A DNA stretch of 64,000 nt. Origin: an uncultured Pseudomonadota bacterium (GTDB lineage Bacteria > Pseudomonadota > Alphaproteobacteria > JACZXZ01). The stretch covers positions 320,001 to 384,000 of the forward strand of contig CAVVLJ010000017.1 of the NCBI GenBank assembly GCA_963749075.1, in the 5' to 3' direction. The position numbers were made by a program, and so were the translations under genes. Of this stretch, positions 48,967 to 64,000 are shown in pieces. The stretch's first letter is position 1; every line of letters starts with the position of its first letter. The notes beneath the pieces are model-generated. The model was given only the letters and a program-made list of their open reading frames with translations. It did no database searches and was not told the DNA's origin.

Positions 48967-50022
48967 ATGTCGAATGAACCATCGGCGAACGCGGACCAGG
49001 GTCTCGTACCGGTCATCGACATCGCCCCGTACCTCGGCGGGAACGAGGCGCAGAAGCGCGAGGTTGCCGCCCGGATCGACGCCGCCTGCCGCGAAGCGGG
49101 GTTCTACATCATCGTCGGCCACGGCGTGGATGCGGCACTGATCGAGCGCATGGCAGCGATATCGCGCGAGTTCTTCGCCCTTCCGCTGGCGGACAAGATG
49201 CGGCTGCACCGCGACGGGAGCGGGGAGAAGGGCTCCGTCGGCTACTCGACGATCGGCGACAACAACCTCTCCTATACGCGCGGCGAGAATCTCCCCTTCG
49301 ATCTCAACGAGACCATTCAAATCGCACCCCTCGACGTCGGCAACGACGCATATTACCGGGAAGGCGCTACGCTCGGGATGTTCCCGCCCAACCAGTGGCC
49401 GGAACGTCTGCCGGCGTTCAAGGAGATCTTCAGCGACTATTACCGACGCATGATCGCACTTGCCGGCGACCTCATGCGGCTCTCCGCCCTGGCGCTCGAG
49501 CTGCCCGAGGACTACTTCGCCGACAAGATCGACCGCAGCGTGAGCAAGCTTGCCGCTCGTCTCTATCCGGAGCAGGCCGAGGAACCGCTGCCGGGCCAGC
49601 TCCGGGCCGCGGCCCACACCGATTACGGCACGCTGACGATCCTGAAGCCCGGCAACGCGCCGGGCGGGCTGCAAATCGCCGACGGAGAAGGCCGTTGGCA
49701 CGATGTCCCGATGGTGCCCGGCTCCTACGTGATCAATCTCGGCGATGTCATGGCGCGCTGGACGAACGATCGCTGGCGCTCGACGCTACATCGTGTCACG
49801 AACCCGCCGCTGGAACTGCGCCGAAGCTCCCGCCGGCTCTCGATCGTGTTTTTCGGCCATCCGAATTACGATGTCGCCGTGTCCTGCCTGCCGTCTTGTC
49901 GGCAGCCGGGGAACCCGCCGCGCTACGAGCCGATTACCGTCGCGGATTACTATCTCTTGAAACAGAATCAGGGGCGCATCCTCCGGACTAGGGCTTCCTC
50001 TCCTCACGAGGCCGCGCCATGA
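48967..50022 (+). CDS. Isopenicillin-N-synthase-family 2OG/Fe(II) oxygenase
   Basis: VPVIDI, AC.E.GF.Y..GHGV, HTDYG.LT, NLGD..RWTND.W.STLHRV, R.S. Start uncertain. Confidence 0.9.
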   Translation: MSNEPSANADQGLVPVIDIAPYLGGNEAQKREVAARIDAACREAGFYIIVGHGVDAALIERMAAISREFFALPLADKMRLHRDGSGEKGSVGYSTIGDNNLSYTRGENLPFDLNETIQIAPLDVGNDAYYREGATLGMFPPNQWPERLPAFKEIFSDYYRRMIALAGDLMRLSALALELPEDYFADKIDRSVSKLAARLYPEQAEEPLPGQLRAAAHTDYGTLTILKPGNAPGGLQIADGEGRWHDVPMVPGSYVINLGDVMARWTNDRWRSTLHRVTNPPLELRRSSRRLSIVFFGHPNYDVAVSCLPSCRQPGNPPRYEPITVADYYLLKQNQGRILRTRASSPHEAAP

Positions 50023-50593
50023 GCGCGCGTAGCTTGCCGGCGATGCGCTCGCCCGGCGTGCCAGCATCGAACCCCGCGGCGAAGGCGCCTTGCGGGTCCA
50101 TGACGTAGATATAGGCGCTGTGGTCCATGAGGTAGTCGTCGGCGCCGGCTCCGGTCCTGCGGCGGACGTAGTAGACCCCGTATTCCTTGGCGACGGCGGC
50201 GAGCTGTTGCGGAGCGCCGATGAGGCCGACGATCCGCGGGTCGAAGGCGCGGACGTAGCTCGCCATCACCTTGGGCGTGTCGCGCTGGGGATCGACCGTG
50301 ATGAAGAGCACCTGCAGCTTTGCCGCTTCGGGCCCGAGCTTCGCGAGCGCCCGGGCGATCTCGCCGAGCGTGGTCGGGCAGGTGTCGGGACAGAAGGTAT
50401 AGCCGAAGTAAACGAGCAGCCATTTGCCGCGGTACGTCCGATCGGTGACGGTCGCGCCGCCGGCGGTCGTCAGCGTGAAGGGTCCACCGATGGTCACCGC
50501 CGCCGCGGCCGCCCGCGGCAGAGGCGGGCTCATCGCCATGAGAGCCAGCGCTGCCAGAACGGCCGGCAGCATGGAGAGGAGGCGCCGCCGCAC
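49988..50593 (-). CDS. SCO1/SenC copper chaperone
   Basis: GGPF.L, YFGYTFCPDTCP, TVDP.RD, DHSA..Y..DP.G. Start uncertain. Confidence 0.92.
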   Translation of the reverse strand: MRRRLLSMLPAVLAALALMAMSPPLPRAAAAAVTIGGPFTLTTAGGATVTDRTYRGKWLLVYFGYTFCPDTCPTTLGEIARALAKLGPEAAKLQVLFITVDPQRDTPKVMASYVRAFDPRIVGLIGAPQQLAAVAKEYGVYYVRRRTGAGADDYLMDHSAYIYVMDPQGAFAAGFDAGTPGERIAGKLRALMARPREERKP

Positions 50594-50774
50594 GAGAGCT
50601 CACTCCCCGGGTGCCGCGGCGGCCGGCGGGCGGCGGCCGCGAGCGCCGGCGCGGCAGCGCCGGCGGCACGGCGAAGCGAGCCCGCCCGGCACCAGTGCCA
50701 GTCGTCCGCTCTCGGCGATCATGGCTTCCGACCTTCCGGCGGCGGATTGGCCGCCGCCGCGGCGCCGTCCCCGC

Positions 50775-51992
50775 TCACGCGGCCTTGGGGATCATCAAGC
50801 GGCCCCAGACATCGGCGAGGGCTGCCACCAAGCTGTCGATATCGGCGTCGGAATGCAAGGGCGTCGGTGTGAGCCGCAGACGCTCGCTGCCGCGCGGCAC
50901 GGTGGGGAAATTGATCGGCTGCACGTAGATGCGGTGGCGCGCGAGGAGCTCGTCCGAGGCCTGCTTGCACAGCCGCGCGTCGCCCACGAGCACGGGCACG
51001 ACATGGCTCGGCGACGGCATCATCGGCAATCGCGCGTGGCGCAGCCGCGCTTTCAGCAAGGCGACGCGCTCCTGGTGGCGCTCGCGCACCGCCGGGGCGC
51101 CCTTGAGGAAGCGCAGGCTGGCAAGGGCGCCCGCAGCGATCGCCGGCGGCAGCGCCGTGGTAAAGATGAAGCCGGGTGCGAAGCTGCGCAGGAAGTCGAC
51201 GAGTGCCGCCGAGCCGGCGACATAGCCGCCCACCAGACCGAAGGCCTTGGCCAGCGTGCCCTGGATCAGGCTCAGCCGGTGCATCACGCCGTCCCGCTCG
51301 GCGACGCCCCCGCCGCGCGGGCCGTAGAGGCCGACGGCATGGACCTCGTCGAGATAGGTGAAGGCGCCGTAGCGCTCCGCCACGTCGCAAAGCTCGGCGA
51401 GGGGTGCGATGTCGCCGTCCATGGAATAGACCGACTCGAAGGCGACGAGCTTGGGCCGCTCCGGATCGGCGAGGGCCAGCCGGCGCGCGAGGTCCGCCGG
51501 ATCGTTGTGCGCGAAGATGTGCCGCTCGGCGCCGCTGTGCCGGATGCCTTCGATCATGGAGGCGTGATTGAGCGCGTCGGAATAGATGATGGCGCGCGGC
51601 ATCTGGCGGCCGAGGGTCGCCAGCGCCGCCTCGTTGGCGACGTAGCCCGAGGTGAAGAGGAGTGCCGCCGCCTTGCCGTGGAGATCGGCGAGCTCGCGCT
51701 CGAGGGCGACATGGTAGCGGGTGGTGCCGGAGATGTTGCGCGTGCCGCCGGCGCCGGCGCCGCTGAGGTCGATGGCCTCGCGCATGGCGGCCAGCACCTC
51801 CGGGTGCTGCCCCATGCCGAGATAGTCGTTCGAGCACCACACCGTCACCTCGGCGCCGAGGCGGTGCTCGAAGGCGTTGGGGAAGGCGCCCGCCCGCCGC
51901 TCGAGCTCGGCGAAGACGCGGTAGCGCCCCTCCCCTCTCAGCTCGGCGAGGCGCTCGGTGAAGAATGCCTCATAGTTCGGCTCTCGCCGCAT
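50775..51992 (-). CDS. hemA: 5-aminolevulinate synthase
   Basis: [51 protein letters not shown]. Confidence 0.95.
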
Positions 51993-52086
51993 CGGCCTCG
52001 ACCCAACTTCCGCGATTCCCCGAAGCGAAGCGCCGTCTCGGCGGCGGAGCGGCGGCGCGCCCCGCCGCCGCCCCGCGTAGCGCCGC

Positions 52087-52536
52087 CTAATATTGCCCGG
52101 TATCGAGCACCGAGCCCGAATTCGACCAGTAGATGTAGGTCTCGAGCGCCTTCATCGCCTCCGAGTCGGGAGTGATCTTCTCGCCCTGGTTTGGCTTCTC
52201 GATGCACCAGTTGATCATGTCCCGCAGCGTCGCGAAGGCGGCCATCTGGGATTGAAACTTCGGGAACGAGCCGGGATGGGTGTCGGAGGCCATGGGATGG
52301 CACATCGCGCAAGCCATCCCCGTCTTGCTGAGCGTCACCCCCATCGCCTTGGCGGTGGCGCCGTCGCCATGGAACAGAAGGTCGCCCTTCCTGACCTCGT
52401 CCATGAGGACATCGTTGTACGCCTTGAGCTGATCCGGCGTGACGGGCGTCTTATGGGCATCCGCAGAGCTGATCAACCCTACCGTCAGAACGGTTCCGAC
52501 GAGGAGGGCGCCGCGGACGAACTTTCGGCTTGTCAT
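52087..52536 (-). CDS. Exported monoheme cytochrome c, SoxA/TsdA-like domain
   Basis: Signal peptide, CAMCH, then [14 protein letters not shown]...DS.AMKAL.TY..W with an extra Cys at the TsdA/SoxA distal-ligand position. Confidence 0.8.
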
Positions 52537-52549
52537 GGCCAGTCCTCCC

Positions 52550-53689
52550 TCAGTCCTTGTATTGCCACATTTCGTCGGCGATGCGCGGATGCAGGATCTC
52601 GCGGTGGCTCAGCGAGGAGTCGGACATCGATTGAGCGTAGACCACCTTGCGGCCCCACATGACGTAGTCGTTCTCGACCTTGTCGGCGGCGCTGACGGTG
52701 AGCTTGTCCCAGCCGACGCCGTCGTAGATGTCGCCGGGATCGGCACGGATCATCGGCACGGTGAGCTTCGGCACGCCCTCCGGCGCATAGGGCCACGGCC
52801 ACGCGGTCGACAGCATGCCGATGCAGCGCATGTGCCCGATCTCGTTGTAGAGCACCTGGTGGGTATGGCCGTGGATGTTGGTGATGTTGGTGTAGGGCGC
52901 CAGCACCTCGTTGACCGGTCGCCAGTCGCGCACCCAGAAGTTCCAGCGCGGGTAGTACTCGTAGAGGGGGTTGTGCGTGAAGACGATCACCGGCTTGGCC
53001 TTGTCCCAGCCGGAGAGCGATTTCTGCAGGAAGTCGATCCCGTCGCTGCCGACCGCGGCCCAGGGACCGGCGACGTTGCCGTCGAGGGTCGCCATGTGAT
53101 CCATGCGCTCTTCCGGGCTCATCTTCCTGGCCGACCAGTAGTCCGGCGCGCGGCTGACGGTGTCGAGGCCGATGAAGCGTACGCCCTTGTGGTCGAAGGT
53201 CCAGCTCGGCTTGCCGTAGAGGTCGGTCCAGTGCTTGCCCATGTCGTAGTACCAGTCGTGCTCGCCCGGGATGAAGTGCTTCGGGGCCTTCACCTCCTTG
53301 AGGATATTGCTGCCGAGATCGAGCTCATCGGCGCGGCCGAGCTGGGCGATGTCGCCGCCGAAGACGAGGAAATCCGGCGCCGGTTTCATCTCCTGCACGT
53401 CCTTGACAGCGCGCACCGTCTTCTCGACGAAGCGCTCGTTGACCGCCTTGACATAGAGGTGCGTGTCGGAAATCCAGGCGAAGCTGAAAGGCTCCGTCGC
53501 GGCGTGGGCGACGCTGATGGTGTTGACGAGGGGGAACCAGCCCACGCTCGCCGCCCCGGCGGCCACGCCGGTGGCGATCGATTTGTGCAGGAACGTGCGG
53601 CGGCTGAGATGGAGCGACGGGTCGGGCCGCGCGCCGAGTTTGTTCAAGGTGCGGTGCATCTCACGTCGTTCGCGGTCAAGCTCGGACAT
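52550..53689 (-). CDS. Tat-exported calcineurin-like metallophosphoesterase
   Basis: SRRTFL..AHA signal; SDTH, GGD, GEHD, THNP, HGHTH. Confidence 0.9.
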   Translation of the reverse strand: MSELDRERREMHRTLNKLGARPDPSLHLSRRTFLHKSIATGVAAGAASVGWFPLVNTISVAHAATEPFSFAWISDTHLYVKAVNERFVEKTVRAVKDVQEMKPAPDFLVFGGDIAQLGRADELDLGSNILKEVKAPKHFIPGEHDWYYDMGKHWTDLYGKPSWTFDHKGVRFIGLDTVSRAPDYWSARKMSPEERMDHMATLDGNVAGPWAAVGSDGIDFLQKSLSGWDKAKPVIVFTHNPLYEYYPRWNFWVRDWRPVNEVLAPYTNITNIHGHTHQVLYNEIGHMRCIGMLSTAWPWPYAPEGVPKLTVPMIRADPGDIYDGVGWDKLTVSAADKVENDYVMWGRKVVYAQSMSDSSLSHREILHPRIADEMWQYKD

Positions 53690-53768
53690 GGCGTGCCTCC
53701 CTTTCTTGGTCGTCACAAAACATTGCGCACTCGCCCAAGGCGGCGAACGGCCGAGCGGGCCGTCTCGC

Positions 53769-54491
53769 CTACTTGGGCGCCTTCAGCTCGATGGCGAGTT
53801 CCACAGGCTTGCCCGCGGCAACCGTGACCGGCTGCTCCATCTCGCCCGTATAGGGCTGCCAGGTCACGAGGGTGTAGTTGCCCGGCGGCACGTCCGCGAT
53901 CGTGAACTTGCCGTCGGCGCCGGTGATGGCGTAGTAGGGATTGTCCACGACATAGATCCAGCCCAGCATCCAGCCGTGGGCGTCGCAATCCACGCGCACC
54001 TCGCCGGGCCGCGTCAGGTCCGTCTCGATGCGCTGGCCCTTGTTCGGCAAGGCCATGTTGAAGGCGGTGCGCTTGCCGTAGTAGCCGTGGGTGTTGTGCA
54101 GCACCGGATCGTCGTTGACGACCACGAGCGGTCCCGCGGGGATGACCTGGACATCGGGCACGAAGCGGCATTTCACGTTGTCGAGCTCGGGCTTCTTGCC
54201 GGGCGCCGGCCAAGCCTTGCCCTTGGCCACCTCCTTGAGGAAGACGACCGCGTTCGCGACGGCGTGGTCGGCGTCCACGTCGATCAGCGGATCCTCGCGG
54301 ATGCCGCCGCAGACCTCGACATCCTTGGTCGGAATGATCTTCCGCGTCGGTACGGTGCCGTTGTAGGTGATCTTGCCCGAGATGGTGCCGCCGCCGGTAA
54401 CCGTGCCCGCCTCATAGGCTTGCGCGGGGACGCTCAAGAATGCCGCGAGGGCGAGCGCAAGAAAAACGGCAAACGGATTGATAGTCTTCAT
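53769..54491 (-). CDS. Exported cupredoxin-like protein with a carboxypeptidase-regulatory-like C-terminal domain
   Basis: Signal peptide (AQA); C.F.P, HNTH and CDAHGWM (putative type-1 Cu ligands); TGADGKFTI.DVPPG.Y. Confidence 0.78.
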   Translation of the reverse strand: MKTINPFAVFLALALAAFLSVPAQAYEAGTVTGGGTISGKITYNGTVPTRKIIPTKDVEVCGGIREDPLIDVDADHAVANAVVFLKEVAKGKAWPAPGKKPELDNVKCRFVPDVQVIPAGPLVVVNDDPVLHNTHGYYGKRTAFNMALPNKGQRIETDLTRPGEVRVDCDAHGWMLGWIYVVDNPYYAITGADGKFTIADVPPGNYTLVTWQPYTGEMEQPVTVAAGKPVELAIELKAPK

Positions 54492-54568
54492 CGCTACGGC
54501 TCGCCCTCCCAAAGCTTTCCGGCCATTATTGCGTCCGGCGTGCCGCCGGCGGCCTTTTCACGAGGCGT

Positions 54569-54629
54569 CGAGAGCAAGGGTGGCATGGAAGCCGCCCGGA
54601 AATCTTTGGCGAATTCCTGAAATCTTCTG
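54569..54629 (-). promoter_or_regulatory. Copy A of the 61-bp inverted duplication (faces the leftward operon)
   Basis: Reverse complement is 51/61 identical, ungapped, to 54801-54861. Confidence 0.8.
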
Positions 54630-54800
54630 GTTTGACCTGATGCGGCCGCGCGCGGCTCTCGCCATTGCGCGGCGCGCGTGATGCGGCGGCGGGTCATGGT
54701 CGGCATCAGCCCATTGCGCAGGCGCCTACGGACGAGAGGTGCCCGCGGCCAGCGCCGCGTGCTCCGGCGCGGGCTGCGCCGGCCCCCACTCAGCTCATTT

Positions 54801-54861
54801 CAGAAAATTCCAGGAATTCGCCAAAGATTTCCGCGTGGGTTTCGTGCAACGCTGGCTCTCG
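54801..54861 (+). promoter_or_regulatory. Copy B of the 61-bp inverted duplication (faces the rightward operon)
   Basis: CAGAAAATTCCAGGAATTCGCCAAAGATTTCCG core, 31/33 identical to copy A. Confidence 0.8.
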
Positions 54862-54935
54862 CGCGCACCGAATAGAGCAAGAATAGCGCGCAGCAACCGG
54901 CTGGGCTGGGAAGCCGAGGGGAGGAGGGGCGCACC

Positions 54936-56390
54936 ATGGCCGAAGCAGTGCATGGGGCGGAACCGCTGCACGGCAAGTTCGCCGGCATCGATCTCGATGA
55001 GCTGGTCGATTGGCGGCTCGTAAGAACTTGGCTCTATTTCGGCATGTTTTGGCTGATGGTGACGCCCTCGGTCGGCGTGACGCTCTCGGGCATCTTCGAC
55101 TATCCCGATTATCTCGGCCATGCGCTGGGCCTGACCTTCGGGCGGCTGCGGCCGGTGCACGTCAACGGCGTCATCTTCGGCGCCTTTTCCAGCCTGTTCA
55201 TCGGGGAGTGCTATTACCTGGTGCCGCGCCTGTGCGGCGTGCGCGTCGCCTGGGGCGAATGGGGCATTCCGCTCGCCTGGGTGTGGAACCTGGCGCTCCT
55301 GGCCGGCCTTACCTCGCTGCCCTTGGGCGATAACCACGGGCTTGAGGCGGGCGAGCTCCCCCTCCTCGCCGAGATCCCGATCTTCATCGTAACCGCGGCC
55401 GCGACCGCGCAGTTCATCGTCACCATTTCGCGGCGCCTCGAGCCGGCGCTTTACGTGGCGCTTTGGTACCTGATCGGCGCTTTCATATGGACCACGTTGA
55501 ACCTCATCCTGGGCGCCTTCATCCTGCCCTACACCATCTCGGGCGTCAACAGCGCCGCCTTCCACGGGCTCTACATCCACTACATCGTCGGCCTATGGAT
55601 CACGCCGGCGGGCTACGTCATCATCTATTATTTCCTCCCGCTCAGCGTGCGCAATCCGCTCTATGCCCACAAGCTCTCCATGGTCGGTTTCTGGTCGCTC
55701 GCGCTGTTCTATCCCTTCGTCGGCATCCACCACTATCTCTACAGCCCGATCGCCGATTGGGCCGAGACGATCGCCATCGTCTGCTCGATGCTGCTGATCA
55801 TCCCGGTGTGGACGGTGCTGGTGAACTTCTTCGGTACCGTGAAGGGCCGCTGGGCGCACTTCGGCAAGAACCTCCCGGCCAAGTTCCTGATCATGGGCTC
55901 CATCATGTATCTTGCCGGCTGCTTCCAGGGCTCGACCGAGGCGTTGCGCTCGATCCAGCAGCCAACCCATTTCACCGACTTCGTCATCTCCCATTCGCAC
56001 CTCACCGTGTTCGGCACCTTCGTGGTGTGGTCGATCGGCGGCCTCGTCTATCTCTGGCCGCGCGTCTGGGGCCGCGAGCTGTGGTCCTTCACGCTCGGTA
56101 ACTATTCCTTCTGGCTCATCACCGTCGGCATCTCCACCATGGGCCTGGTGCTGACGGCGGGAGGCCTGCAGCAGGGCTACGAGTGGATGAGCGGCACCAA
56201 CTGGCTCGACACGGTGGTGCACATGCGGCCCTTCTGGTTCGCGCGCACCCTCGCCGGGATCAGCATGGACATCGGCATGTCGCTGCTCGTCATCAACCTG
56301 ATGATGACGGCGATCACCAGTCCCGCCGCGGAGAGGCAGCCGCACGTGCGCGGCAGCGCCCCGCTGCCAGCCGGGGGGGCCGCGGAATGA
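54936..56390 (+). CDS. ccoN: Divergent cbb3-type (C-family) heme-copper oxidase subunit I
   Basis: FGRLRPVH.N, E..E Ca-site, six His ligands (PVH, YIH, IHH, HSH), helix-VII Tyr (FYPF), HFTD. Confidence 0.88.
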   Translation: MAEAVHGAEPLHGKFAGIDLDELVDWRLVRTWLYFGMFWLMVTPSVGVTLSGIFDYPDYLGHALGLTFGRLRPVHVNGVIFGAFSSLFIGECYYLVPRLCGVRVAWGEWGIPLAWVWNLALLAGLTSLPLGDNHGLEAGELPLLAEIPIFIVTAAATAQFIVTISRRLEPALYVALWYLIGAFIWTTLNLILGAFILPYTISGVNSAAFHGLYIHYIVGLWITPAGYVIIYYFLPLSVRNPLYAHKLSMVGFWSLALFYPFVGIHHYLYSPIADWAETIAIVCSMLLIIPVWTVLVNFFGTVKGRWAHFGKNLPAKFLIMGSIMYLAGCFQGSTEALRSIQQPTHFTDFVISHSHLTVFGTFVVWSIGGLVYLWPRVWGRELWSFTLGNYSFWLITVGISTMGLVLTAGGLQQGYEWMSGTNWLDTVVHMRPFWFARTLAGISMDIGMSLLVINLMMTAITSPAAERQPHVRGSAPLPAGGAAE

Positions 56391-58090
56391 ACGCTCGCAT
56401 CGTAGCGCTGCTCGCCGGCGTCTTCTTCTTCTTCCTCGCCGTCGTCACGCAAGGGGTGCTGCCCTTCCTCGAGCCGTCGGCACGCACCAATCTGGTGACG
56501 GCGGTGGTCCGCACCGACCTCGGTCAGCTCAAATGGATGGTGACGGCGGCCACCGATTACACCCCGCTCCAGCAGCGCGGCCGCGACGTGTATCTCAGGG
56601 AGGGCTGCTGGTACTGTCACTCCCAATACGTGCGCCCGGTGACCGGCGAGACGCGGCGCTGGGGGCCGGTGAGCGAGGCCGGCGAATACGCCTACGACGT
56701 GCCGCACCTCTTCGGCACGCGGCGCATCGGGCCCGACCTCACGCGGGTCGGCCTCAAATACGGCGACGAGTGGCATTTCGCCCACTTCTGGAATCCGCGC
56801 ATGCTGTCGCCGGATTCGATCATGGCGTCCTATCGCGATCTCTTCGACCTGCCGAGCCGGCCGGTCAAGATCGTCGATGACGGCCAGGGCGGCCGCACCC
56901 TCGAGCAGACCGCGGTCACCAAGAAGCTCTTCGACTTCGCGAGCAAGGACCAGATCAAGCTCACGCCGAATGCCGAGGGCCTGCTCTTCGTCCCCAAGGC
57001 GGCGGCGGGCAAGTTCCCGCTGATCTGGACGCCCAACAAGGAATATACCGGCGCCACGGTCACCCTTGCCGTGGAGAGCGACGATCTCGAGGGCCTCATC
57101 GCCTACGTCCAGAAGCTCGGCATGAACCGCGGCAAGTGGCGTGATCGCTTCGAGCCGCAGGAGCTCGAGTCCTCGGGGGCGGCCCTGCCGGCCTCGGAGG
57201 AATGGATCGCCTACGGCAAGGAGGTCTACGAGCGGCATTGCGTCGGCTGCCACGGCGACAAGGGCGACGGCAACGGGACCGCCGCGACCTTCATGTACAA
57301 TCAGCGGCCGCGCAACTTCACGCTCGGCGTCTTCAAGTTCCGCCTCACCCAGAAGCCCGTCCCGACCGACGGCGACCTGCTGCGGACGATCACGCGCGGC
57401 GTGCGCGGCACGGCGATGCCGCCCTGGTATAGCCTGCCGCTCAACGACCGTCTCGCCGTCATTCAGTACATCAAGTACGTTCTCGCGGTGGACCGTTCCG
57501 ACCCGAAGAAGCCTTATGCCTATTTCGTCGAGGAGCCGCCGGGTCAGCCGCTCTATATCCCCAACCCCCCGCCGCCCTCGCAGCAAATGGTCGCGCACGG
57601 CCACGACGTCTGGCAGAACGCCAAGTGCTGGGAGTGCCATGGCACGGCCGGCATGGGCGATGGCGAGAAGGCCGCCGGCTTGAAGGACGATTTCGGCTTC
57701 CCGATCCGGCCCGCCAATCTCACCACGGGCCAGTTCAAGTCGGGGCCGAGGGTGGAGGACATCTTCAGGACGATCAGCACCGGCTTGAGCGGCTCGCCGA
57801 TGCCATCGTTCCGGGATTCGGAGCCGGAGGCGGACCGCTGGGCGCTCGCCTACTACATCCTGTCGCTCTCCGCCTACAAGGATCCGCTCACCGCCAAGCC
57901 GCTCGAGCTGCCCGCGGCGGTGCGCACGGCGCTCGACGATCCCAAGCTCGAGGCGCCGACCCCCGAGCGGGCCTATGTGCCGCCCGGCGTCTCGATGGAG
58001 CGCGTGACGGAGGCGGGCGTCTCCATCGCCCCTGGCGAGACGGTGGAAGTGCGCAAGGAGGCGAGCGCGGGCACTAGCGGGAAGGATTGA
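56387..58090 (+). CDS. CcoO-like subunit fused to two further cytochrome c domains (triheme)
   Basis: GR.VY.REGCWYCHSQ.VRP, GTRRIGPDL.RVG, then CVGCH..TAMP and CWECH..SPMP. Confidence 0.9.
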   Translation: MNARIVALLAGVFFFFLAVVTQGVLPFLEPSARTNLVTAVVRTDLGQLKWMVTAATDYTPLQQRGRDVYLREGCWYCHSQYVRPVTGETRRWGPVSEAGEYAYDVPHLFGTRRIGPDLTRVGLKYGDEWHFAHFWNPRMLSPDSIMASYRDLFDLPSRPVKIVDDGQGGRTLEQTAVTKKLFDFASKDQIKLTPNAEGLLFVPKAAAGKFPLIWTPNKEYTGATVTLAVESDDLEGLIAYVQKLGMNRGKWRDRFEPQELESSGAALPASEEWIAYGKEVYERHCVGCHGDKGDGNGTAATFMYNQRPRNFTLGVFKFRLTQKPVPTDGDLLRTITRGVRGTAMPPWYSLPLNDRLAVIQYIKYVLAVDRSDPKKPYAYFVEEPPGQPLYIPNPPPPSQQMVAHGHDVWQNAKCWECHGTAGMGDGEKAAGLKDDFGFPIRPANLTTGQFKSGPRVEDIFRTISTGLSGSPMPSFRDSEPEADRWALAYYILSLSAYKDPLTAKPLELPAAVRTALDDPKLEAPTPERAYVPPGVSMERVTEAGVSIAPGETVEVRKEASAGTSGKD

Positions 58091-58094
58091 CGCC

Positions 58095-58283
58095 ATGCCG
58101 GAGTTCGAGGTCGCAGGTCCCTATGTCACCGCCCTGATGATGAGCATCGGCGCCGTGTGCGTCTTCATCTGGGGCGTGTTATCGGGCGCTTTCAACGCGT
58201 CGGACGAACCGTCCAAGAGGTTCTATCAGTCGGAGGTCGGAGATGACGGAGTCGGAGAGGGACACGATGTCCCCGGTGAATGA
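58095..58283 (+). CDS. CcoS-like small membrane protein
   Basis: One TM segment followed by FIWGVLSGAF..DEP (cf. F.WA..SGQFDD). Confidence 0.65.
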   Translation: MPEFEVAGPYVTALMMSIGAVCVFIWGVLSGAFNASDEPSKRFYQSEVGDDGVGEGHDVPGE

Positions 58284-58446
58284 GGAGACCCACGAGGAGC
58301 TGGAGGAGTATGCCGGCGGTTACATCAAGGCACGGCACGGGTACATCCCCGCGTGGCTGCTCGTCGTCTACGCGGCCCTGTTCGTCTGGGCGCTCTATTA
58401 CCTCTTCGTCTATTGGGGCGGCGTCGGACCGGGGCGGGTGTTCTAG
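58243..58446 (+). CDS. Small membrane protein resembling the CcoP N-terminal anchor
   Basis: EYAGGYI....IPAWL..VY..LFVWALYY; GGAGG RBS; no heme motif. Confidence 0.55.
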   Translation: MTESERDTMSPVNEETHEELEEYAGGYIKARHGYIPAWLLVVYAALFVWALYYLFVYWGGVGPGRVF

Positions 58447-58510
58447 AGCCGCCGGGTAGGGTGGCGCGCGGGTGCGGCCGGCCAAATGGCCGCGGAAGGG
58501 GAGACGAGAG

Positions 58511-58609
58511 ATGCTGATGCCTAAGATCATCATAGCGGTCGCGTGCGCGAACCTGCTGTTCCTGTTCTCTGAGCTCACCATGAACGTGGTCCGGGCCTTT
58601 ATCGGCTGA
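58511..58609 (+). CDS. 32-aa hydrophobic microprotein (not in ORF track)
   Basis: MLMPKIIIAVACANLLFLFSELTMNVVRAFIG*; purine-rich RBS. Confidence 0.45.
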   Translation: MLMPKIIIAVACANLLFLFSELTMNVVRAFIG

Positions 58610-58620
58610 GGAGAGCAAGC

Positions 58621-58746
58621 ATGGTTGCGCATACCCTTTTCTCGCTGAGCACTGCGAGCCCGGAGCAGGCCGTGGCCTTCATCGGGTTCTCGCTCTTCAC
58701 CATCGGCTTCTTCGTCTGGGTGGCTTGGCTCTCGCGCAAGAAATAG
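58621..58746 (+). CDS. 41-aa single-TM protein, CcoQ-like (not in ORF track)
   Basis: MVAHTLFSLSTASPEQAVAFIGFSLFTIGFFVWVAWLSRKK*; GAGGAG RBS. Confidence 0.55.
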   Translation: MVAHTLFSLSTASPEQAVAFIGFSLFTIGFFVWVAWLSRKK

Positions 58747-58804
58747 CGCCGTCCTTGCAGCGCCGCAGGCGGCGGGCGGCCGAACGCGGGCGGGCCATGC
58801 GGTG

Positions 58805-59533
58805 ATGGACTACTATCTGCTGCTCTTTGCCGCCGGCTTCGCCGGCAGCTTCCATTGCGTCGGCATGTGCGGCGGCTTCGCCTGCGCGCTCGGACGCGAC
58901 CCGCGCGGACATCCGGCGAGCGTTCTGCGCCACCTGCTCTACAACAGCGGCCGGGTCACGACCTACTGCTTCCTCGGCGCCCTCGCGGGTACGCTCGGGC
59001 AGGCGCTGTGCACGCCGAGGGGCTTGACCACGACGCCGCTCCTCGCCGGCTCGCTCGACGCCGGCCAGCGCATCCTCGCCGTGGTCGCGGGGCTGCTGAT
59101 GGTCGCCATGGCGCTGCAGTTCTTCGGTCTGCTGCAGGGACTGCACCGCGTGACCACGGGCTTCGGCGGCAGCACGCTCGCCGGCTCCCTGCGCAGCCTG
59201 CTCGCCGGGCGCGGGCACGGGGCGCCGCTCGCGTTCGGGGTCATCAACGGCTTCCTCCCCTGCCCGCTGGTCTACGCCTTCACCGCCCAGGCGGCGAGCA
59301 CCGCGAGCGCGCTCCCCGGCGTCCTCACCATGGCGGCCTTCGGCCTCGGCACCTTCCCGGCCATGCTGGCGATGGGCGGCATCGGCCGGCTAATGGGTCC
59401 CGTGTGGCGCCGCCGCGGCGTCTGGCTTGCCGGCGGCTTCATCCTGCTCCTCGGCCTCGTCACGCTCGGCCGCGGCATCCTGCCCATGGCCGGCCATGGT
59501 GGGCACCTCTGGCACGGCGGGCATCTCGCATGA
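58805..59533 (+). CDS. DsbD_2/TauE-like cbb3 maturation membrane protein
   Basis: GSFHCVGMCGG, YN.GR..TY, GFLPCPLVY, FGLGT.P. Confidence 0.88.
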   Translation: MDYYLLLFAAGFAGSFHCVGMCGGFACALGRDPRGHPASVLRHLLYNSGRVTTYCFLGALAGTLGQALCTPRGLTTTPLLAGSLDAGQRILAVVAGLLMVAMALQFFGLLQGLHRVTTGFGGSTLAGSLRSLLAGRGHGAPLAFGVINGFLPCPLVYAFTAQAASTASALPGVLTMAAFGLGTFPAMLAMGGIGRLMGPVWRRRGVWLAGGFILLLGLVTLGRGILPMAGHGGHLWHGGHLA

Positions 59534-61704
59534 CTGCCGCGGGCGAAGGGCTCTGCCGCCATTGCCTGTTGCCGCTTGGCTTGCGCCCGCTGCGGCGCAC
59601 GATGCGGGGAGAGAGCCGCGCGTTTTGCTGCTACGGCTGCTGCATCGCCGATCAGGTCAAGGGCGGACGCGGCGAGGAGTGGGAAGCGGCGCTGCTCCTC
59701 ATCCGCCTCGGCGTCGGCAGCTTTCTCTCGATGAACATCATGCTGTTCAGCCTGCTCTTTTACGCCGACGCCTTCGCCGCTACCGACGTCCGGGTCGTCC
59801 GCGGCATCGACTTCCTGCTCTGGGCCCTGGCGACGCCGGCGCTTCTCATCCTCGGCGGGCCGTTCCTGCGGGAGAGCTGGGGCAACGCCGCGCGCGGGCG
59901 CCTGACCTCCTCGGCGCTCATCGTGCTCGGCGTCGGCGCCGCCTACCTCTATTCCGTCCTCGTCATTCTGGCCGGCGGCACGCACGTCTATTTCGATACC
60001 GCCGCCATGGTGTTGATGCTGTTCACGCTCGGACGCTATCTCGAGGCGGCCGGGCGCGCCCGCGCCGCGCGCGACCTCGAGCCCCTGCTGGCGGCGGAGA
60101 GCGAGCTCGTGACGGTGGTCGACGGCGAGACGGAGCGGCGCTGCCCGGCGCGCGAGGTCGTCGCCGGGATGCTGGTGCGGGTGAGGCCCGGCGAGCGCAT
60201 CGCCGTCGACGGCACGGTGCTCGAGGGCGAGTCCCATGCCGACGAGGCGGTGATCACGGGAGAGAGCCGTGAAATCGTCAAGCTTGCCGGCGCGCCGGTG
60301 ATCGCCGGCAGCATCAATCTCGACGGCGTCCTCCTCATCCGCTGCGACAGTCCCGGCAACGAGACGCGCTGGGCGCAAATCTGCCGCTCGGTGCGGGAGG
60401 CGCTGTTGCGCCGCAGCCCGATCCAGCGCCTCGCCGACGGCGCGGTGAGCGCCTTCGTGCCCCTCGTGCTGCTGCTCGCGGGCGCGACCGTGCTCTATTG
60501 GGCGACGCGGCTGCCCTTCGACGGCGCCCTGCTCGCCGGGCTCGCCGTGCTGGTGGTGGCCTGCCCCTGCGCGGTCGGCCTCGCGGCACCTCTGGCGAGC
60601 TCGCTCGGCATCGGCCGCCTGGCGCGGCACGGCTGTCTCGTGCGCAGCCCCGGCGCGCTCGAGAGCCTCGCCCGCACGCGCCTGCTTGCCTTCGACAAGA
60701 CCGGGACGCTGACCGCCGGCAGGCCGCGGCTCGTCGGCATCGCGTGCGCGGCCGCGGAGAGCGGCGACGTGCTCGCCCGCGCCGCTGGCCTCGAGCGCCA
60801 TTCCGAGCATGCGCTCGCGCGCGCCGTCACCGCCGCGGCTGCGGCGCGCGGGCTCCAACCGGCGCCCGCCCGCGAGGTCCGCGTCATCGCGGGCCGCGGC
60901 ATCCGGGGCAGCGTCGGCGGAGAGACGGTGGCAGCCGGCAGCCATGTCTTGATGGAGGCGCTCGGCTGGCCGCTGCCGCCGACCCTCGCCGAGCGCGCGC
61001 TAGAGCTTGAAGCGGACGGTCATTCGGCGATCTATGTCGGCTGGGGCGGGCGAGTTCGCGCCCTGCTCTCCTTCGCTGACACCCCGCTCCCCGAGGCCCG
61101 CGCCACGGTCGCGGCACTCGGCCGCCTCGGGCTGCAAGCAGCCCTTCTGACGGGCGATCTCGCCGGCGCCACCGCGCGCGTCGCCGCTGCGGCGGGGATC
61201 GCGGACTGGCAGGCCGGCCTCTCGCCCGAAGCCAAGCGCGCGAGCCTTGAGCGGCGGCGTCAAGGGGGCGGCCTGACGGCGATGGTCGGCGACGGGCTCA
61301 ACGACGGCCCGGCGCTGGCGGGAGCGGACGTCGGCATCGCCGTCGGCAGTGCCACGGATCTCGCGCGCGAGACCGCGGATCTCGTGCTCCCTCCGGGCGG
61401 GCTGTGGATGCTGCCCTGGATCGTCGGCCTGGCGCGGGCGGTGCGCGGGACCATCCTGGCCAACCTGGCCTGGGCCTTCGGCTACAACCTCATTGCCCTC
61501 GCCTGCGCAGCACTCGGACTGCTGCAGCCGATGCTGGCGGCCGGGATCATGGCCGGTTCGAGCATCCTCGTGGTGATGAATTCGCTGCGCTTGGAGCGCT
61601 ATCCCGATCCGGTTCCTTTCGGCACCCCGGCGCCTGACCGCGCGCAAGCGCGGCGCGCCGGCGGGGAGCCGGTCGCGAGCGCTGCGGCGCTCGAGCACGT
61701 TTGA
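59530..61704 (+). CDS. CcoI/FixI-like Cu-transporting P1B ATPase
   Basis: N-terminal CRHC..FCCYGC, TGES, CPC, DKTGT, SEH, GDGLND, YN..P..M..SS. Confidence 0.92.
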   Translation: MTAAGEGLCRHCLLPLGLRPLRRTMRGESRAFCCYGCCIADQVKGGRGEEWEAALLLIRLGVGSFLSMNIMLFSLLFYADAFAATDVRVVRGIDFLLWALATPALLILGGPFLRESWGNAARGRLTSSALIVLGVGAAYLYSVLVILAGGTHVYFDTAAMVLMLFTLGRYLEAAGRARAARDLEPLLAAESELVTVVDGETERRCPAREVVAGMLVRVRPGERIAVDGTVLEGESHADEAVITGESREIVKLAGAPVIAGSINLDGVLLIRCDSPGNETRWAQICRSVREALLRRSPIQRLADGAVSAFVPLVLLLAGATVLYWATRLPFDGALLAGLAVLVVACPCAVGLAAPLASSLGIGRLARHGCLVRSPGALESLARTRLLAFDKTGTLTAGRPRLVGIACAAAESGDVLARAAGLERHSEHALARAVTAAAAARGLQPAPAREVRVIAGRGIRGSVGGETVAAGSHVLMEALGWPLPPTLAERALELEADGHSAIYVGWGGRVRALLSFADTPLPEARATVAALGRLGLQAALLTGDLAGATARVAAAAGIADWQAGLSPEAKRASLERRRQGGGLTAMVGDGLNDGPALAGADVGIAVGSATDLARETADLVLPPGGLWMLPWIVGLARAVRGTILANLAWAFGYNLIALACAALGLLQPMLAAGIMAGSSILVVMNSLRLERYPDPVPFGTPAPDRAQARRAGGEPVASAAALEHV

Positions 61705-61741
61705 ACATTTGCCGCCATGGCAAAGGGAAAAGGACCGAAAA

Positions 61742-62803
61742 GTGGCAGACGATCTTAGGGTGGACGGGTCGAGGGAGCCTGCGGAGGTTGCCGGCTTCGG
61801 GCACGGCTTCCGCGCGGTCCATGGCGCCCTCGGGCGCTTTCTGCGCCTGCCCCGCCTGCGCCGGGAGGGCGCCTGGCTGCTGGCGGCGCTCGTGCTCGTC
61901 GGCTGGGTGGCGACCGGCATCTATAAAGTGCAGCCCGACGAGCAGGGCCTGGTGCTGCGCTTCGGCCATTGGATCGCGACCGAGCCGCCGGGGCTGCACT
62001 ACCACCTGCCCTATCCGGTCGAGAGGGTGCTGCTGCCGAGGGTCACCAGCATGAACGAGATGCGCATCGGCGGCGGCACGCCCGGCCTCTCCATCGGCGC
62101 GAGCCACATGCTGACCGGCGATGAGAATCTGGTCGAGGCCGAATATTCGGTATTCTGGGAGGTCAAGGACGCCGGGCGCTATCTCTTCGCGATGAGCGAT
62201 CCGGTTGGCATGCTGCGCACCGCCGCCGAGAGCGCGCTGCGCGACGTGATCGGGCGCAATCCCATCCTCTCCGCAATGTCCGACAAGCGCCAGCAGATCG
62301 CCGATGCCACCAAGGATGAGCTGCAGCGCTTGCTGAGCGCGCATCATGCCGGCATCCAGATCGTCCACGTCCAGTTGCAGCGCGTCGATCCGCCCGCGGC
62401 GGTGATTGATGCCTTCAACGACGTGCAGCGCGCCCGCGCCGACCAGGAGCGCGCTCGCAATGAGGCCGAAGCCTACCGCAACGACATCCTTCCCCGCGCC
62501 CGCGGCGAGGCCCAGCACATCATCCAGGACGCGGAGGCCTACAAGGCGCAGGTCGTGGCCGAGGCCAAGGGCGAGCTGCAAAACTACCTCGCGACCTACG
62601 CCGCCTACGGGGTCTCGCCCGAGGTGGTGTCGTGGCGGCTCTACCTCGACAGCGTGGATCAGATGCTGCGCAAGGCAGGCAAGGTCGTCATCGATTCCTC
62701 GGGCAAGGGTGTCGCGGGCGTGGTGACCTACATGCCGCTTGCCGACCTGCCGCACCCCGGGCGTCCCGAGAGCGGCGCAGACACGAAGGGGGCGCCGAAA
62801 TGA
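61742..62803 (+). CDS. hflK: HflK-family protein
   Basis: V.PDEQG.VLRFG, PGL.YHLPYP.E, MLTGDEN, V.PP..V.DAF.DVQ.A, P.ARGEA. Start uncertain. Confidence 0.9.
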   Translation: MADDLRVDGSREPAEVAGFGHGFRAVHGALGRFLRLPRLRREGAWLLAALVLVGWVATGIYKVQPDEQGLVLRFGHWIATEPPGLHYHLPYPVERVLLPRVTSMNEMRIGGGTPGLSIGASHMLTGDENLVEAEYSVFWEVKDAGRYLFAMSDPVGMLRTAAESALRDVIGRNPILSAMSDKRQQIADATKDELQRLLSAHHAGIQIVHVQLQRVDPPAAVIDAFNDVQRARADQERARNEAEAYRNDILPRARGEAQHIIQDAEAYKAQVVAEAKGELQNYLATYAAYGVSPEVVSWRLYLDSVDQMLRKAGKVVIDSSGKGVAGVVTYMPLADLPHPGRPESGADTKGAPK

Positions 62804-63681
62804 AGCGCTTTCTGCTGCCCTTGGCACTCGCCGTCGCCGCCGGTGCTGCGTTCATCCTGCCCGCGATCTTCTATACCGTGGGCGAGACGGATCAGGCTCT
62901 GGTCACGCGCTTCGGCCGGCCGATCGCCGTCGTCACCGCTCCCGGGCTCCATGCCAAGCGGCCCTTCGTCGACAACGTCACCTTCTACGACGCGAGGCTG
63001 CTGCCGCTGGACCCGCCCACCGAGCAGATCATCCTCGGCGATCAGAAGCGGATCGAGGTCGACACCTACACGTGGTTCCGCATCGTCGATCCGCTGCGCT
63101 TCTACCAGTCGGTGCATACGCTGGAGCAGGCGCGCTCGCAATTGACGCAACTCGTCGGCTCGTCGCTGCGCCGCGAATTGGGACAGGTGGCGCTCCCGGC
63201 GCTCCTGACGGAGCAGCGCGAGACGATCACCTCCGTCATCCGGAAAGAAGTGGCGGACAAGGCGCGTCCGCTCGGCATCGAGGTCGCCGACGTGCGCATC
63301 CATCGCGCCGATCTGCCGCCCGAGACCAGCCAGGCGATCTACGACCGCATGAAGTCGGAACGCCAGCGCGATGCCAAGGAGCTGCGCGCCCAGGGTTACG
63401 AGTGGGCGCAGGAAATCAAGAGCCGGGCGGACAAGGAGCGCACGGTGATCCTCGCGGAGGCGGAGCGGCAGAGCACCATCACGCGCAGCGAGGGCGACGC
63501 CGAGGCGAACCGGCTGTTCGGCGAGGCCTTCGCCAAGGACACCAAGTTCTTCACCTTCTACCGCGCCATGCAGACCTATCGGCGGGCGCTGGCGGATGCG
63601 GCGCCGACCTTGATTCTCTCGCCGGATGCGCAGTTCCTGCGCTACCTCGGCGGCGGCCCCCTGGCGAAGCCCGCGCCATGA
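62800..63681 (+). CDS. hflC: HflC-family protein
   Basis: PGL..K.PF, DQKR..VD, DP..FY, RADLP, Y.RM.SER, F..FYR...Y. Confidence 0.9.
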   Translation: MKRFLLPLALAVAAGAAFILPAIFYTVGETDQALVTRFGRPIAVVTAPGLHAKRPFVDNVTFYDARLLPLDPPTEQIILGDQKRIEVDTYTWFRIVDPLRFYQSVHTLEQARSQLTQLVGSSLRRELGQVALPALLTEQRETITSVIRKEVADKARPLGIEVADVRIHRADLPPETSQAIYDRMKSERQRDAKELRAQGYEWAQEIKSRADKERTVILAEAERQSTITRSEGDAEANRLFGEAFAKDTKFFTFYRAMQTYRRALADAAPTLILSPDAQFLRYLGGGPLAKPAP

Positions 63682-63729
63682 ACGCGCGTTGCGGCGGCGC
63701 CGTTCGGCTGTCGGCCTGAGGAGGTGGCC

Positions 63730-64000
63730 GTGCCTTCTTCCGTCATCGCCGCGCGCCCCTCCTGGCGCCGGCTGGCTTTTGTGGTTGGGCCCGGATTGGT
63801 GGCGATGCTGGCCGATACCGACGCCGGCAGCGTGATCACCGTGGCGCAGAGCGGGGCACAGTGGCAATACCGGCTTTTGCTGCTGCAATTCCTGCTCATT
63901 CCGGCGATGTTCATGGCGCAGGAGCTCGCCGGGCGCATCGGGATGTGCACCGGCAAGGGATGCGCCGAACTCATCCTCGCGCGGTTCGGTCGTGCCTGGG
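63730..64000 (+). CDS. NRAMP-family divalent cation transporter, 5' part (not in ORF track)
   Basis: Manual translation GPGLVAMLADTDAGSVITVAQSGAQWQY..QELAGRIG..TGKG.AELI..RFG; GAGGAGG RBS. Confidence 0.88.
   Translation, partial: MPSSVIAARPSWRRLAFVVGPGLVAMLADTDAGSVITVAQSGAQWQYRLLLLQFLLIPAMFMAQELAGRIGMCTGKGCAELILARFGRAW

Follow-up and report, generated by a model that had tools for sequence, protein, structure and literature searches.

A 64-kb stretch of DNA from an uncultured soil alphaproteobacterium (contig CAVVLJ010000017.1, positions 320,001 to 384,000; called the window below, with its numbering used unless another contig or locus is named) carries two divergently transcribed gene sets at 49988-61704. 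Together with a third operon just outside the window, these genes probably constitute a horizontally mobile periplasmic module that oxidizes reduced inorganic sulfur on a dedicated SoxYZ-type carrier and delivers the electrons to its own cbb3-type oxidase. We hold this conclusion, which is drawn from comparative sequence analysis, at somewhat better than even confidence. A first-pass annotation of the same DNA had proposed a non-canonical analogue of Sox that acts without a carrier, with electrons passing through a cupredoxin and a triheme subunit to O2 and with heme and copper supplied locally. The comparative evidence supports part of this proposal. Its carrier-free portion fails, because a dedicated SoxYZ pair and an FCSD flavocytochrome belong to the module.

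The two gene sets were delimited from the list of open reading frames (ORFs) and from Pfam and NCBIfam searches, which recovered every gene named in the first-pass annotation. Their features are as follows.

49988-50593, minus strand: SCO1/SenC copper chaperone, encoded at the end of the leftward operon (PF02630, E 9.1e-49)
50775-51992, minus strand: 5-aminolevulinate synthase (hemA) dedicated to the module (TIGR01821, 647 bits; cut-off 338.55)
52087-52536, minus strand: exported monoheme cytochrome c of 149 amino acids, SoxA/TsdA domain family, a "mini-SoxA" (PF21342, 37.3 bits; cut-off 27)
52550-53689, minus strand: metallophosphoesterase (MPE), GEHD variant, predicted to be exported by the twin-arginine (Tat) pathway (PF00149, 42.2 bits)
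53769-54491, minus strand: exported protein whose middle part is cupredoxin-like and whose C-terminal part is a CarboxypepD_reg beta-sandwich (PF13620, 35.8 bits)
54569-54640, minus strand: left arm of an inverted repeat, with an operator-like core at 54600-54629 towards the cupredoxin operon
54790-54861, plus strand: right arm of the inverted repeat, with an operator-like core at 54801-54830 towards ccoN
54936-56390, plus strand: divergent CcoN, catalytic subunit of a C-family heme-copper oxidase (PF00115, 227.6 bits)
56387-58090, plus strand: CcoO fused to a C-terminal diheme CcoP-like domain (FixO, 148.1 bits, and two Cytochrome_CBB3 stretches)
58095-58283, plus strand: membrane microprotein of 62 amino acids, weakly FixS/CcoS-like (PF03597, 17.9 bits, under the cut-off of 23.1)
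58243-58446, plus strand: microprotein of 67 amino acids resembling the N-terminal membrane anchor of CcoP, FixP_N (PF14715, 22.6 bits, under the cut-off of 24.9)
58472-58609, plus strand: hydrophobic microprotein of 45 amino acids (ORF; tblastn matches in a minority of loci)
58621-58746, plus strand: hydrophobic microprotein of 41 amino acids (ORF; tblastn matches in most type-A loci)
58802-59533, plus strand: DsbD_2-family membrane protein (PF13386, E 1.1e-43)
59530-61704, plus strand: copper-translocating P1B-type ATPase, whose role would be CcoI/FixI-like (TIGR01511, 421.8 bits; cut-off 397)

The strongest argument that these genes act together is their conserved order. A scan of species-representative genomes for MPE relatives returned 285 matching stretches; locus counts refer to the best 80 of these, in which gene presence was scored by tblastn with the window proteins and CcoN-clade membership by at least 55% identity. 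The cupredoxin gene directly precedes the MPE gene in 79 of the 80 loci, and the sole miss is a locus that starts 58 nt before MPE. The cytochrome gene directly follows in 77, and the three misses are loci that end 74 nt or less from MPE. An oxidase of the CcoN clade is present in 62 loci, and six of the 18 loci without one are cut within 2.3 kb of MPE. The association also holds in reverse. An alignment of 23 of 56 CcoN sequences was used for a metagenome scan that gave 80 loci at 76-84% identity, and MPE and the cytochrome were present in 41 of the 46 CcoN-anchored loci that extend at least 2.6 kb upstream. Co-occurrence of the periplasmic trio with this oxidase clade, on which the first-pass annotation had staked its proposal, is thus borne out from both ends, and its own objection that MPE might be an ordinary phosphatase lapses in that none of these loci has MPE as a phosphatase gene on its own. 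Most loci have all the genes, from the cupredoxin gene through the Cu-ATPase gene, in a single row on one strand; the divergent layout of the window recurs only in L003, L031, and L043 among the 80. We infer that an ancestral single operon was split here into two divergent units and that the soxYZ unit was displaced by 4.2 kb.

The carrier genes are in the third operon, soxY-soxZ-cytochrome c-FCSD flavoprotein, at G000:C17:385927-388418 (G000 is the genome of the window, a 5.49-Mb assembly, and C17 its contig). The carrier pair (G000:C17:386551-388418) scored 98.4 bits against the SoxY family (PF13501) and 99.9 bits against the SoxZ family (PF08770). This operon lies 4.2 kb beyond the Cu-ATPase gene, and the intervening DNA contains two Band-7 (HflK/C-like) genes and an Nramp gene (61709-64000; G000:C17:384000-385900). 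Because the Cu-ATPase gene and the soxYZ-FCSD operon are directly adjacent in L031 and in most loci, the separation looks like an insertion or rearrangement. In loci of the alphaproteobacterial type, the soxY-soxZ-cytochrome c-FCSD operon is convergent with, and abuts, the Cu-ATPase gene. In 18 loci from Binatia, "Deltaproteobacteria," Rokubacteria, Methylomirabilota, and Acidoferrum, a SoxY-SoxZ fusion (PF13501 and PF08770 with an internal GQGGC) directly follows the cytochrome gene; in the type-B loci, the fusion lies between the cytochrome gene and ccoN. In total, a carrier was found in 59 of the 80 loci, as a SoxY/SoxZ pair or as one of the 18 fusions, and FCSD in 47, and most of the loci without a visible carrier or FCSD are too short to show them. 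The carrier itself is distinctive: the module SoxY ends in VDTNGCA and has no GGCGG arm, in contrast to the canonical SoxY on contig C22, which ends in GGCGG, and a terminus of the form [N/D]-G-C-x was present in 40 of 40 module-type SoxY homologues. The first-pass statement that there is no soxXYZCD here is correct for the window and needs correction in that the genome has this soxYZ pair 4.2 kb past the ATPase gene and a complete canonical soxCDXYZAB cluster on C22.

Type-B loci have further features of their own. The fusion at L046:11684-12592 also has a match (E 1.6e-12) to Desulfoferrodoxin, the family of the superoxide reductase iron site, and is followed by a multiheme cytochrome of 274 amino acids and a protein of 116 amino acids with no assigned family. 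These loci are flanked by genes for an ECF sigma factor, a zf-HC2 anti-sigma factor, and a Caa3_CtaG assembly factor.

A shared upstream element links all three operons. The 424-nt intergenic space between the divergent gene sets contains an inverted repeat of 72 nt that is 81% complementary; the best 72-nt window had 58 matches, whereas 200 shuffles gave 38 on average and 45 at most, so that the duplicated upstream sequence reported by the first-pass annotation is real. A third copy of the repeat core lies outside the window at G000:C17:388450-388479, 32 nt upstream of the ORF of the module soxY (soxY2), and is oriented as the gene is transcribed. TTYCAG-like hexamers, repeated every 10 nt, make up the element. 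A degenerate 30-nt pattern matched exactly three places in the 5.49 Mb at three or fewer mismatches, one upstream of each of the three operons, whereas the reversed control pattern matched none; since the pattern was built from these three sites, its informative part is that there is no fourth. Divergent from soxY2 is a regulator gene (G000:C17:388774-390501) whose product combines a winged helix of the OmpR/PhoB type with an AAA_16 ATPase domain, and this regulator presumably binds the element. With the same element before all three units and the regulator gene beside soxY, co-regulation is most likely.

The element is restricted in its distribution. Its 33-nt core, at seven or fewer mismatches, was found in one of the 80 genome loci (L003, the nearest relative), in both orientations, and the periodic-hexamer pattern was found over 160 loci in L003 and in two unrelated places. 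L003 alone shares the element, which is therefore lineage-specific, and the most plausible account of the duplicated upstream sequence is that this operator was copied when the ancestral operon was split. Counting of k-mers in 48 type-A upstream regions returned a different motif, CTTGATATTAG, in 9 loci. A shared motif upstream of the cupredoxin gene in 9 of 48 type-A loci, CTTGATATTAGAATCA, is distinct from the operator of the window and may be the operator of another lineage's regulator. Scans of 54400-55000 with sigma-70 promoter and terminator consensus patterns gave no matches. An Rfam search of 49500-62500 returned nothing except a match to sX2, a Xanthomonas small RNA, at 58748-58856 in the gap between the last microprotein gene and the DsbD_2 gene, which was rejected as probably due to chance (28.2 bits; gathering score 40).

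The oxidase diverges from canonical cbb3 enzymes and retains the expected active-site residues. CcoN scored 220.5 bits against the ccoN equivalog TIGR00780 (cut-off 583.15), CcoO scored 131.8 bits against TIGR00781 (cut-off 200.65), and the module CcoN is 29% identical to the canonical CcoN of G000, whose ccoNO(Q)P operon (G000:C17, about 137-140 kb) encodes separate CcoO and CcoP. In an alignment of CcoN to 3mk7_A (E 5.2e-51), the His of LRPVH, the His of YIHY, the Tyr and both His of FYPFVGIHH, and HSH are all identical; we take these to be the heme and CuB His ligands and the helix-7 Tyr of 3mk7. The translated CcoO fusion contains three CxxCH motifs in total. Among the accessory genes, tblastn showed that the 62-amino-acid microprotein is kept in most type-A loci, that the 67-amino-acid microprotein is kept in the loci, and that an SCO homologue adjoins the module in most type-A loci; DsbD_2 is 67-78% identical in most type-A loci and 56-60% identical in two. 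The module hemA is one of three 5-aminolevulinate synthase paralogues in G000 and is 70% identical to the other two (G000:C17:629422-630633 and G000:C20:668503-669714). Elsewhere the window encodes housekeeping and catabolic functions with no relation to the module, among them tRNA synthetases, DAHP synthase, cyanase, RecQ, and ABC transporters.

The cupredoxin protein carries the motifs LHNTHG and CDAHGWM. Its longest ORF starts at a TTG at 54512, from which residues are numbered. The type-1 copper ligand set H139, C176, H179, and M182 (C-x2-H-x2-M) is invariant in 74 of 74 sequences, as expected from the first-pass annotation, and C68 and C115 are likewise invariant. Sequence matches in the PDB were all weak (CuA-domain construct 5u7n, E 0.0053; blue copper protein 5fc9, E 0.046; 9cck, E 0.94). 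The earlier assignment of this protein as an electron link is supported by the comparative evidence; its proposed tie to the partner enzymes is incomplete, in that the protein accompanies the electron acceptor no less than it does the enzyme pair. As the constant connection between differing inputs and a high-potential acceptor, the blue-copper protein fits the role of an electron shuttle.

The cytochrome belongs to the domain family of SoxA and TsdA, as the first-pass annotation had suspected and as both profile and fold comparisons now indicate. It has the motifs CAMCH and INWC and a single CxxCH in its 149 residues, and it exceeded the cut-off of PF21342 and scored 28.1 bits against the SoxA equivalog TIGR04484 (cut-off 110). 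Cys111 aligns with the heme-ligating Cys of TsdA (4wq7) and with the Cys of both SoxA domains (1h31). This residue is invariant in 36 of 36 aligned homologues, a subset picked for normal ORF length from 76 sequences, and is kept in at least 98% of all 76. The predicted model is of moderate confidence (pLDDT 66.5). When it was compared in an all-against-all fold search of 48,161 chains, TsdA (Z 5.6), TsdBA (Z 5.5), and SoxA (Z 5.1) were the top three matches, and no other reached Z 4; a Foldseek search agrees with TsdA/SoxA, but at E >0.1. The heme is presumed from these comparisons to be His/Cys-ligated.

The MPE gene ends 13 nt before the cytochrome gene. Its longest ORF reaches 53716, and its probable ATG start is at 53689. 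The motifs DTH, GD, GEHD, HN, and GHTH are conserved in 79 sequences; an invariant Glu replaces the Asn of GNHD, which is the consensus of the superfamily and of GpdQ at the aligned place. GEHD is mostly retained in more distant relatives (30-48% identity), and full-length relatives down to 30% identity mostly have the Tat motif as well. The twin-arginine motif is SRRTFL, and the NCBIfam TAT model gave 16.5 bits (cut-off 16.7). The only Pfam domain is PF00149, so MPE lacks the SoxB architecture (metallophosphoesterase with a 5'-nucleotidase C domain; TIGR04486), in contrast to the true SoxB of G000 on C22, which carries PF02872. The best 120 database matches of MPE are 66-100% identical. The Protein Atlas gave nothing beyond generic "metallophosphoesterase" clusters. 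"Long" MPE forms of 540-583 amino acids were examined as possible fusions and rejected, being frameshifted gene calls that run over neighboring genes. Residues 10-40 (window 53600-53716) form an unusually long conserved stretch, MSELDRERREM...RPDPSL, before the twin-arginine motif; it is modeled as a helix, and a Tat proofreading chaperone may dock there.

Taken together, these properties suggest the following mechanism. The SoxA/TsdA-type cytochrome would couple thiosulfate, sulfite, or sulfide oxidatively to the module SoxY at its C-terminal Cys. The GEHD MPE, which is encoded just upstream of the cytochrome and possibly bound to it, would then hydrolyze the terminal sulfonate to release sulfate, thereby filling the part of SoxB without being its orthologue. 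The FCSD flavoprotein and its small cytochrome would deliver electrons from sulfide, and electrons would pass from the blue-copper protein through the diheme domain fused to CcoO to the active site of CcoN and on to O2. HemA, SCO, DsbD_2, and the Cu-ATPase would supply the cofactors. In short, we regard the module as a Sox-type oxidation on a carrier, reassembled from parts that are not orthologous and coupled to a private oxidase. A bolder version, which we advance tentatively and would not expect to hold in full, is that MPE and the one-domain Cys-heme cytochrome form one two-cofactor enzyme that loads and unloads sulfur on SoxY(T-N-G-C) and that, with the blue-copper shuttle and the cbb3 oxidase, makes up a complete, bc1-independent plug-in chain, spread horizontally and conferring a hidden sulfur lithotrophy on heterotrophic soil bacteria and rhizobia.

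Several observations weigh against this interpretation. No SoxCD-like sulfane dehydrogenase was found in the window or in the related loci, and SoxC is encoded elsewhere in G000; without SoxCD in the cluster, complete oxidation to sulfate is unexplained. The association with the oxidase is incomplete, in that 12 MPE loci that extend 2.7 kb or more to each side have no CcoN-clade oxidase and 5 of the 46 oxidase loci (L155, L163, L164, L167, and L170) lack MPE and the cytochrome. TsdA has two Arg ahead of its Cys (chain positions 82 and 92), which we take to bind thiosulfate and which align with Gln97 and Met107 of the module cytochrome; the first-pass doubt about these residues was thus well placed, and the substrate pocket differs from that of TsdA. 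Invariant Met and His residues also leave other axial ligands possible for the cytochrome heme. For MPE, the nearest structures to the predicted model in a Foldseek search were GpdQ (3d03, E 3.4e-10), Rv0805, and purple acid phosphatases, and SoxB was not among the 50 matches listed, a result that is not decisive by itself given the poor model (mean pLDDT 58.9; the conserved C-terminal residues 303-388, about 85 residues, unmodeled). MPE therefore resembles diesterases of the GpdQ/Rv0805 type rather than SoxB, and "SoxB-like" is an analogy within one superfamily: of the Tat-exported, SoxB-like hydrolase first proposed, the Tat motif and the intact metallophosphoesterase site stand, and kinship with SoxB does not. 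Finally, the complex prediction that had been suggested for MPE (residues 66-388), the cytochrome (residues 27-149), and heme gave a score of 0.60 (runs of 0.60, 0.19, and 0.83), compared to 0.28 for the best of three controls, with contact agreement of at least 51% between runs and partner pLDDT of at least 82. The mark used is reached by 116 of 157 solved complexes and by 2 of 215 mismatched pairs, and at scores of 0.60 or less by just 18 of the 157 and by both mismatches. The prediction thus lends weak support to an MPE-cytochrome complex, slightly raising its odds, and does not establish one.

Some of the exceptional loci carry other genes in place of those missing. In L163 and L170, which were scanned whole among the five exceptions, the oxidase genes are preceded by genes for a protein of 468-476 amino acids that matches no Pfam family, two c-type cytochromes, and a distant (43-46% identical) homologue of the cupredoxin/CarboxypepD_reg protein. 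L167 has a large protein without a Pfam match and one cytochrome, and its cupredoxin homologue was detected by tblastn only; a two-component regulator pair lies upstream. These regions, which may represent a different input module for the same oxidase, are as follows.

L163:2927-6818, L170:3255-6965, and L167:3160-6957: alternative input regions with an exported protein of 468-481 amino acids without a Pfam match (CcoN 76-79% identical)

In loci of the Methylobacterium type, the trio and FCSD occur beside a CcoO-diheme-like gene and a gene for a PufC-type reaction-center cytochrome (PF02276, E 3.7e-133), and there is no ccoN. In L036 (11653-18338), and also in L017, L038, L034, L041, and L054, which are of Methylobacterium, Lichenihabitans, and Acetobacteraceae type, a Cpn60 gene, a stand-alone CcoO-diheme-like gene, and the gene for the PufC-type tetraheme cytochrome adjoin the trio and FCSD. 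No ccoN was found within 10 kb in these loci, and their electron acceptor may be the photosynthetic reaction center. An ORF of 418 amino acids in L036 was considered as a substitute for CcoN and rejected as a shadow ORF on the basis of its hhalign probability (0.06) and composition; the real gene, on the opposite strand, is that of the PufC-type cytochrome. A GroEL/Cpn60 paralogue is embedded in the module at L036:13390-15384 (Methylobacterium) and at L090:9279-10919 (Sinorhizobium meliloti pSymA); the window has none.

The module is widespread. In addition to the 285 stretches in species-representative genomes, its CcoN was found in at least 510 metagenome stretches, mostly from soil, and its MPE in 43 plasmid records, of which 35 are from Sinorhizobium and 34 are predicted to be conjugative. 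The sequencing runs listed as containing the sequence are of soil and peat metagenome DNA, with no RNA run among them. The 80 loci come from Bradyrhizobium, Mesorhizobium, Sinorhizobium/Ensifer, Rhizobium, Microvirga, Methylobacterium, and Methyloceanibacter and also from Thiobacillus, Rokubacteria, Binatia, Methylomirabilota, Acidimicrobiia, and others. Plasmid carriers include pSymA of S. meliloti Rm41, SM11, BL225C, and RU11/001. The annotated order on S. meliloti pSymA is Cu-ATPase, TauE/DsbD_2, cbb3 II, cbb3 I, groEL, SCO, carboxypeptidase-regulatory-like protein, metallophosphoesterase, and hypothetical protein, followed in convergent orientation by FAD oxidoreductase, c-type cytochrome, soxZ, and soxY. 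A sample of 400 other genomes from the class, among them two that share the genus of G000 and one that shares its family, gave no member of the CcoN clade (E <=1e-120). Without a second carrier, this sample is unusable for a two-by-two table of co-occurrence.

Most carriers appear to lack the canonical pathway. Among 50 genomes of the 80 loci, picked for long contigs and isolates, canonical SoxB exceeded the curated cut-off in 13 and SoxC in 17. Isolates of Sinorhizobium, Ensifer, Rhizobium, Microvirga, and Methylobacterium are included among those without a match above the cut-off, and many of the 50 are incomplete assemblies, so that absence of SoxB and SoxC is not proven. G000 itself has the canonical counterparts of both parts, a full Sox cluster and a ccoNO(Q)P operon, so that its module is a second, parallel system.

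This distribution bears on the alternative that survives best, in which the module protects respiration by sulfide or sulfite detoxification, with a sulfide-tolerant private oxidase and with MPE and the cytochrome mainly regenerating or repairing the carrier, and does not support lithotrophy. We consider this unlikely as a full account, although the module is sporadic and accessory (none in the 400 class genomes), resides on symbiosis megaplasmids of heterotrophs, occurs mostly without SoxB and SoxC, and in S. meliloti has trxB, msrA, msrB, and an OsmC-family gene as neighbors. A full oxidase of the proton-pumping type with its own heme and copper supply would be a heavy investment for this purpose, and G000 also has the complete canonical Sox cluster. 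Detoxifying and energy-yielding roles are compatible and not exclusive of each other.

Nearly as probable, and still unlikely in our view, is a carrier-independent thiosulfate pathway, in which the one-domain, TsdA-like cytochrome makes tetrathionate or polythionate, MPE hydrolyzes the free product, and the soxYZ-FCSD operon is a separate sulfide unit that shares the oxidase. TsdA is among the best fold and sequence matches of the cytochrome, and seven MPE loci with at least 8 kb on at least one side (L017, L036, L038, L043, L065, L068, and L081) show no SoxY or SoxZ. There is also a precedent: Erythrobacter flavus is reported to convert thiosulfate via tetrathionate with TsdA and a SoxB-type metallohydrolase and without SoxYZ (PMC7608252). 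Four points oppose this pathway. TsdA is a diheme protein with an Arg pair, whereas the module cytochrome has one CxxCH and has not kept the pair; the SoxY-SoxZ fusion directly follows the cytochrome gene in the 18 loci noted above; the soxY2 promoter has the unique operator of the other two units; and the family-specific SoxY arm suggests co-adapted partners.

A non-sulfur substrate is improbable. MPE would then bind another oxyanion or ester (phosphite, thiophosphate, an arsenic or selenium species, or an organic phosphodiester), and the Cys-heme protein would couple its conversion to electron transfer. The nearest structures of MPE are indeed phosphodiesterases and acid phosphatases, and the invariant Glu in place of a metal-binding Asn hints at an unusual metal center. 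Against this, SoxY, SoxZ, and FCSD are conserved together with the module and have the same operator, and the family of the cytochrome is known from sulfur enzymes only. That MPE is an ordinary Pho-type periplasmic phosphatase, with unrelated cytochromes beside an extra cbb3 oxidase by chance, is hardly credible despite the public names "cyclic-AMP phosphodiesterase" and "Icc protein" for MPE, as this notion is contradicted by the strict cupredoxin-MPE-cytochrome order in every uncut locus, by the 61-71% identity of MPE across several phyla, and by the position of MPE inside an operon, without a promoter of its own and with so short a gap to the cytochrome gene.

Searches of the literature (subscription-only papers and supplements were outside their scope) found no description of the MPE-cytochrome-cupredoxin-oxidase module and no studied member of any of its three core periplasmic proteins. 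A table in Sugawara et al. (2013) lists "soxYZEF-like, sulfur oxidation" in seven S. meliloti strains and in two strains of one other Sinorhizobium species (PMC4053727), and the passages of PMC6431628 consulted do not mention the variant. If the proposed oxidation on the module's SoxYZ-type carrier is correct, the module would be an unrecognized sulfur-oxidation route in soils and legume symbionts, a second, non-orthologous solution to the chemistry of SoxAX and SoxB, and a case of a cbb3 oxidase that takes its electrons from a blue-copper protein and not from the cytochrome c pool. Genetically tractable S. meliloti strains have the module on pSymA, so that this reading is directly testable.

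Comparison with known systems places the module nearest to canonical Sox of the Paracoccus/Rhodovulum type. Shared with it are a SoxY/SoxZ carrier with a C-terminal Cys arm, a SoxA/TsdA-domain cytochrome with a Cys at the heme-ligand position, a Tat-exported, two-metal hydrolase of the metallophosphoesterase superfamily, and an FCSD (SoxF-like) flavoprotein with a c-type cytochrome. In contrast, the module cytochrome is a single 13-kDa domain that is not a SoxA equivalog, and no SoxX gene was found in the cluster with Pfam and NCBIfam; the hydrolase lacks the 5'-nucleotidase C-domain and is GpdQ-like, not SoxB-like; the SoxY arm is T-N-G-C-x rather than GGCGG; SoxCD is missing; and the module includes a blue-copper protein, a private cbb3 oxidase, and cofactor genes and occurs mostly in SoxB-less genomes. 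The FccAB/SoxEF systems likewise have an FCSD flavoprotein (PF21706, PF09242) with a small c-type cytochrome beside soxYZ, but the cytochrome of the module is a monoheme protein of 120 amino acids, and the unit is tied to the MPE-cytochrome-oxidase cluster. TsdA, the best fold match, has in common with the module cytochrome a Cys-bearing c-type heme domain and differs in its two heme domains and Arg-lined pocket. The E. flavus pathway (PMC7608252) also acts on thiosulfate-derived sulfur with a Cys-heme domain and a metallohydrolase, but that hydrolase is of the 5'-nucleotidase/SoxB type. Carrier, cupredoxin, and dedicated oxidase are all absent from both the TsdA and the E. flavus pathway. Finally, the canonical cbb3 system (CcoNOQP with ccoGHIS; Pseudomonas stutzeri 3mk7) shares with the module the His/Tyr ligand positions, the CcoO domain, and a Cu P-type ATPase. 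Its subunits are separate, whereas the module fuses the CcoP diheme domain to CcoO and encodes the FixP_N-like anchor as its own 67-amino-acid gene; it has ccoG and ccoH where the module has DsbD_2, SCO, and hemA; and, unlike canonical cbb3 clusters, the oxidase cluster of the module is always accompanied by the cupredoxin/CarboxypepD_reg protein.

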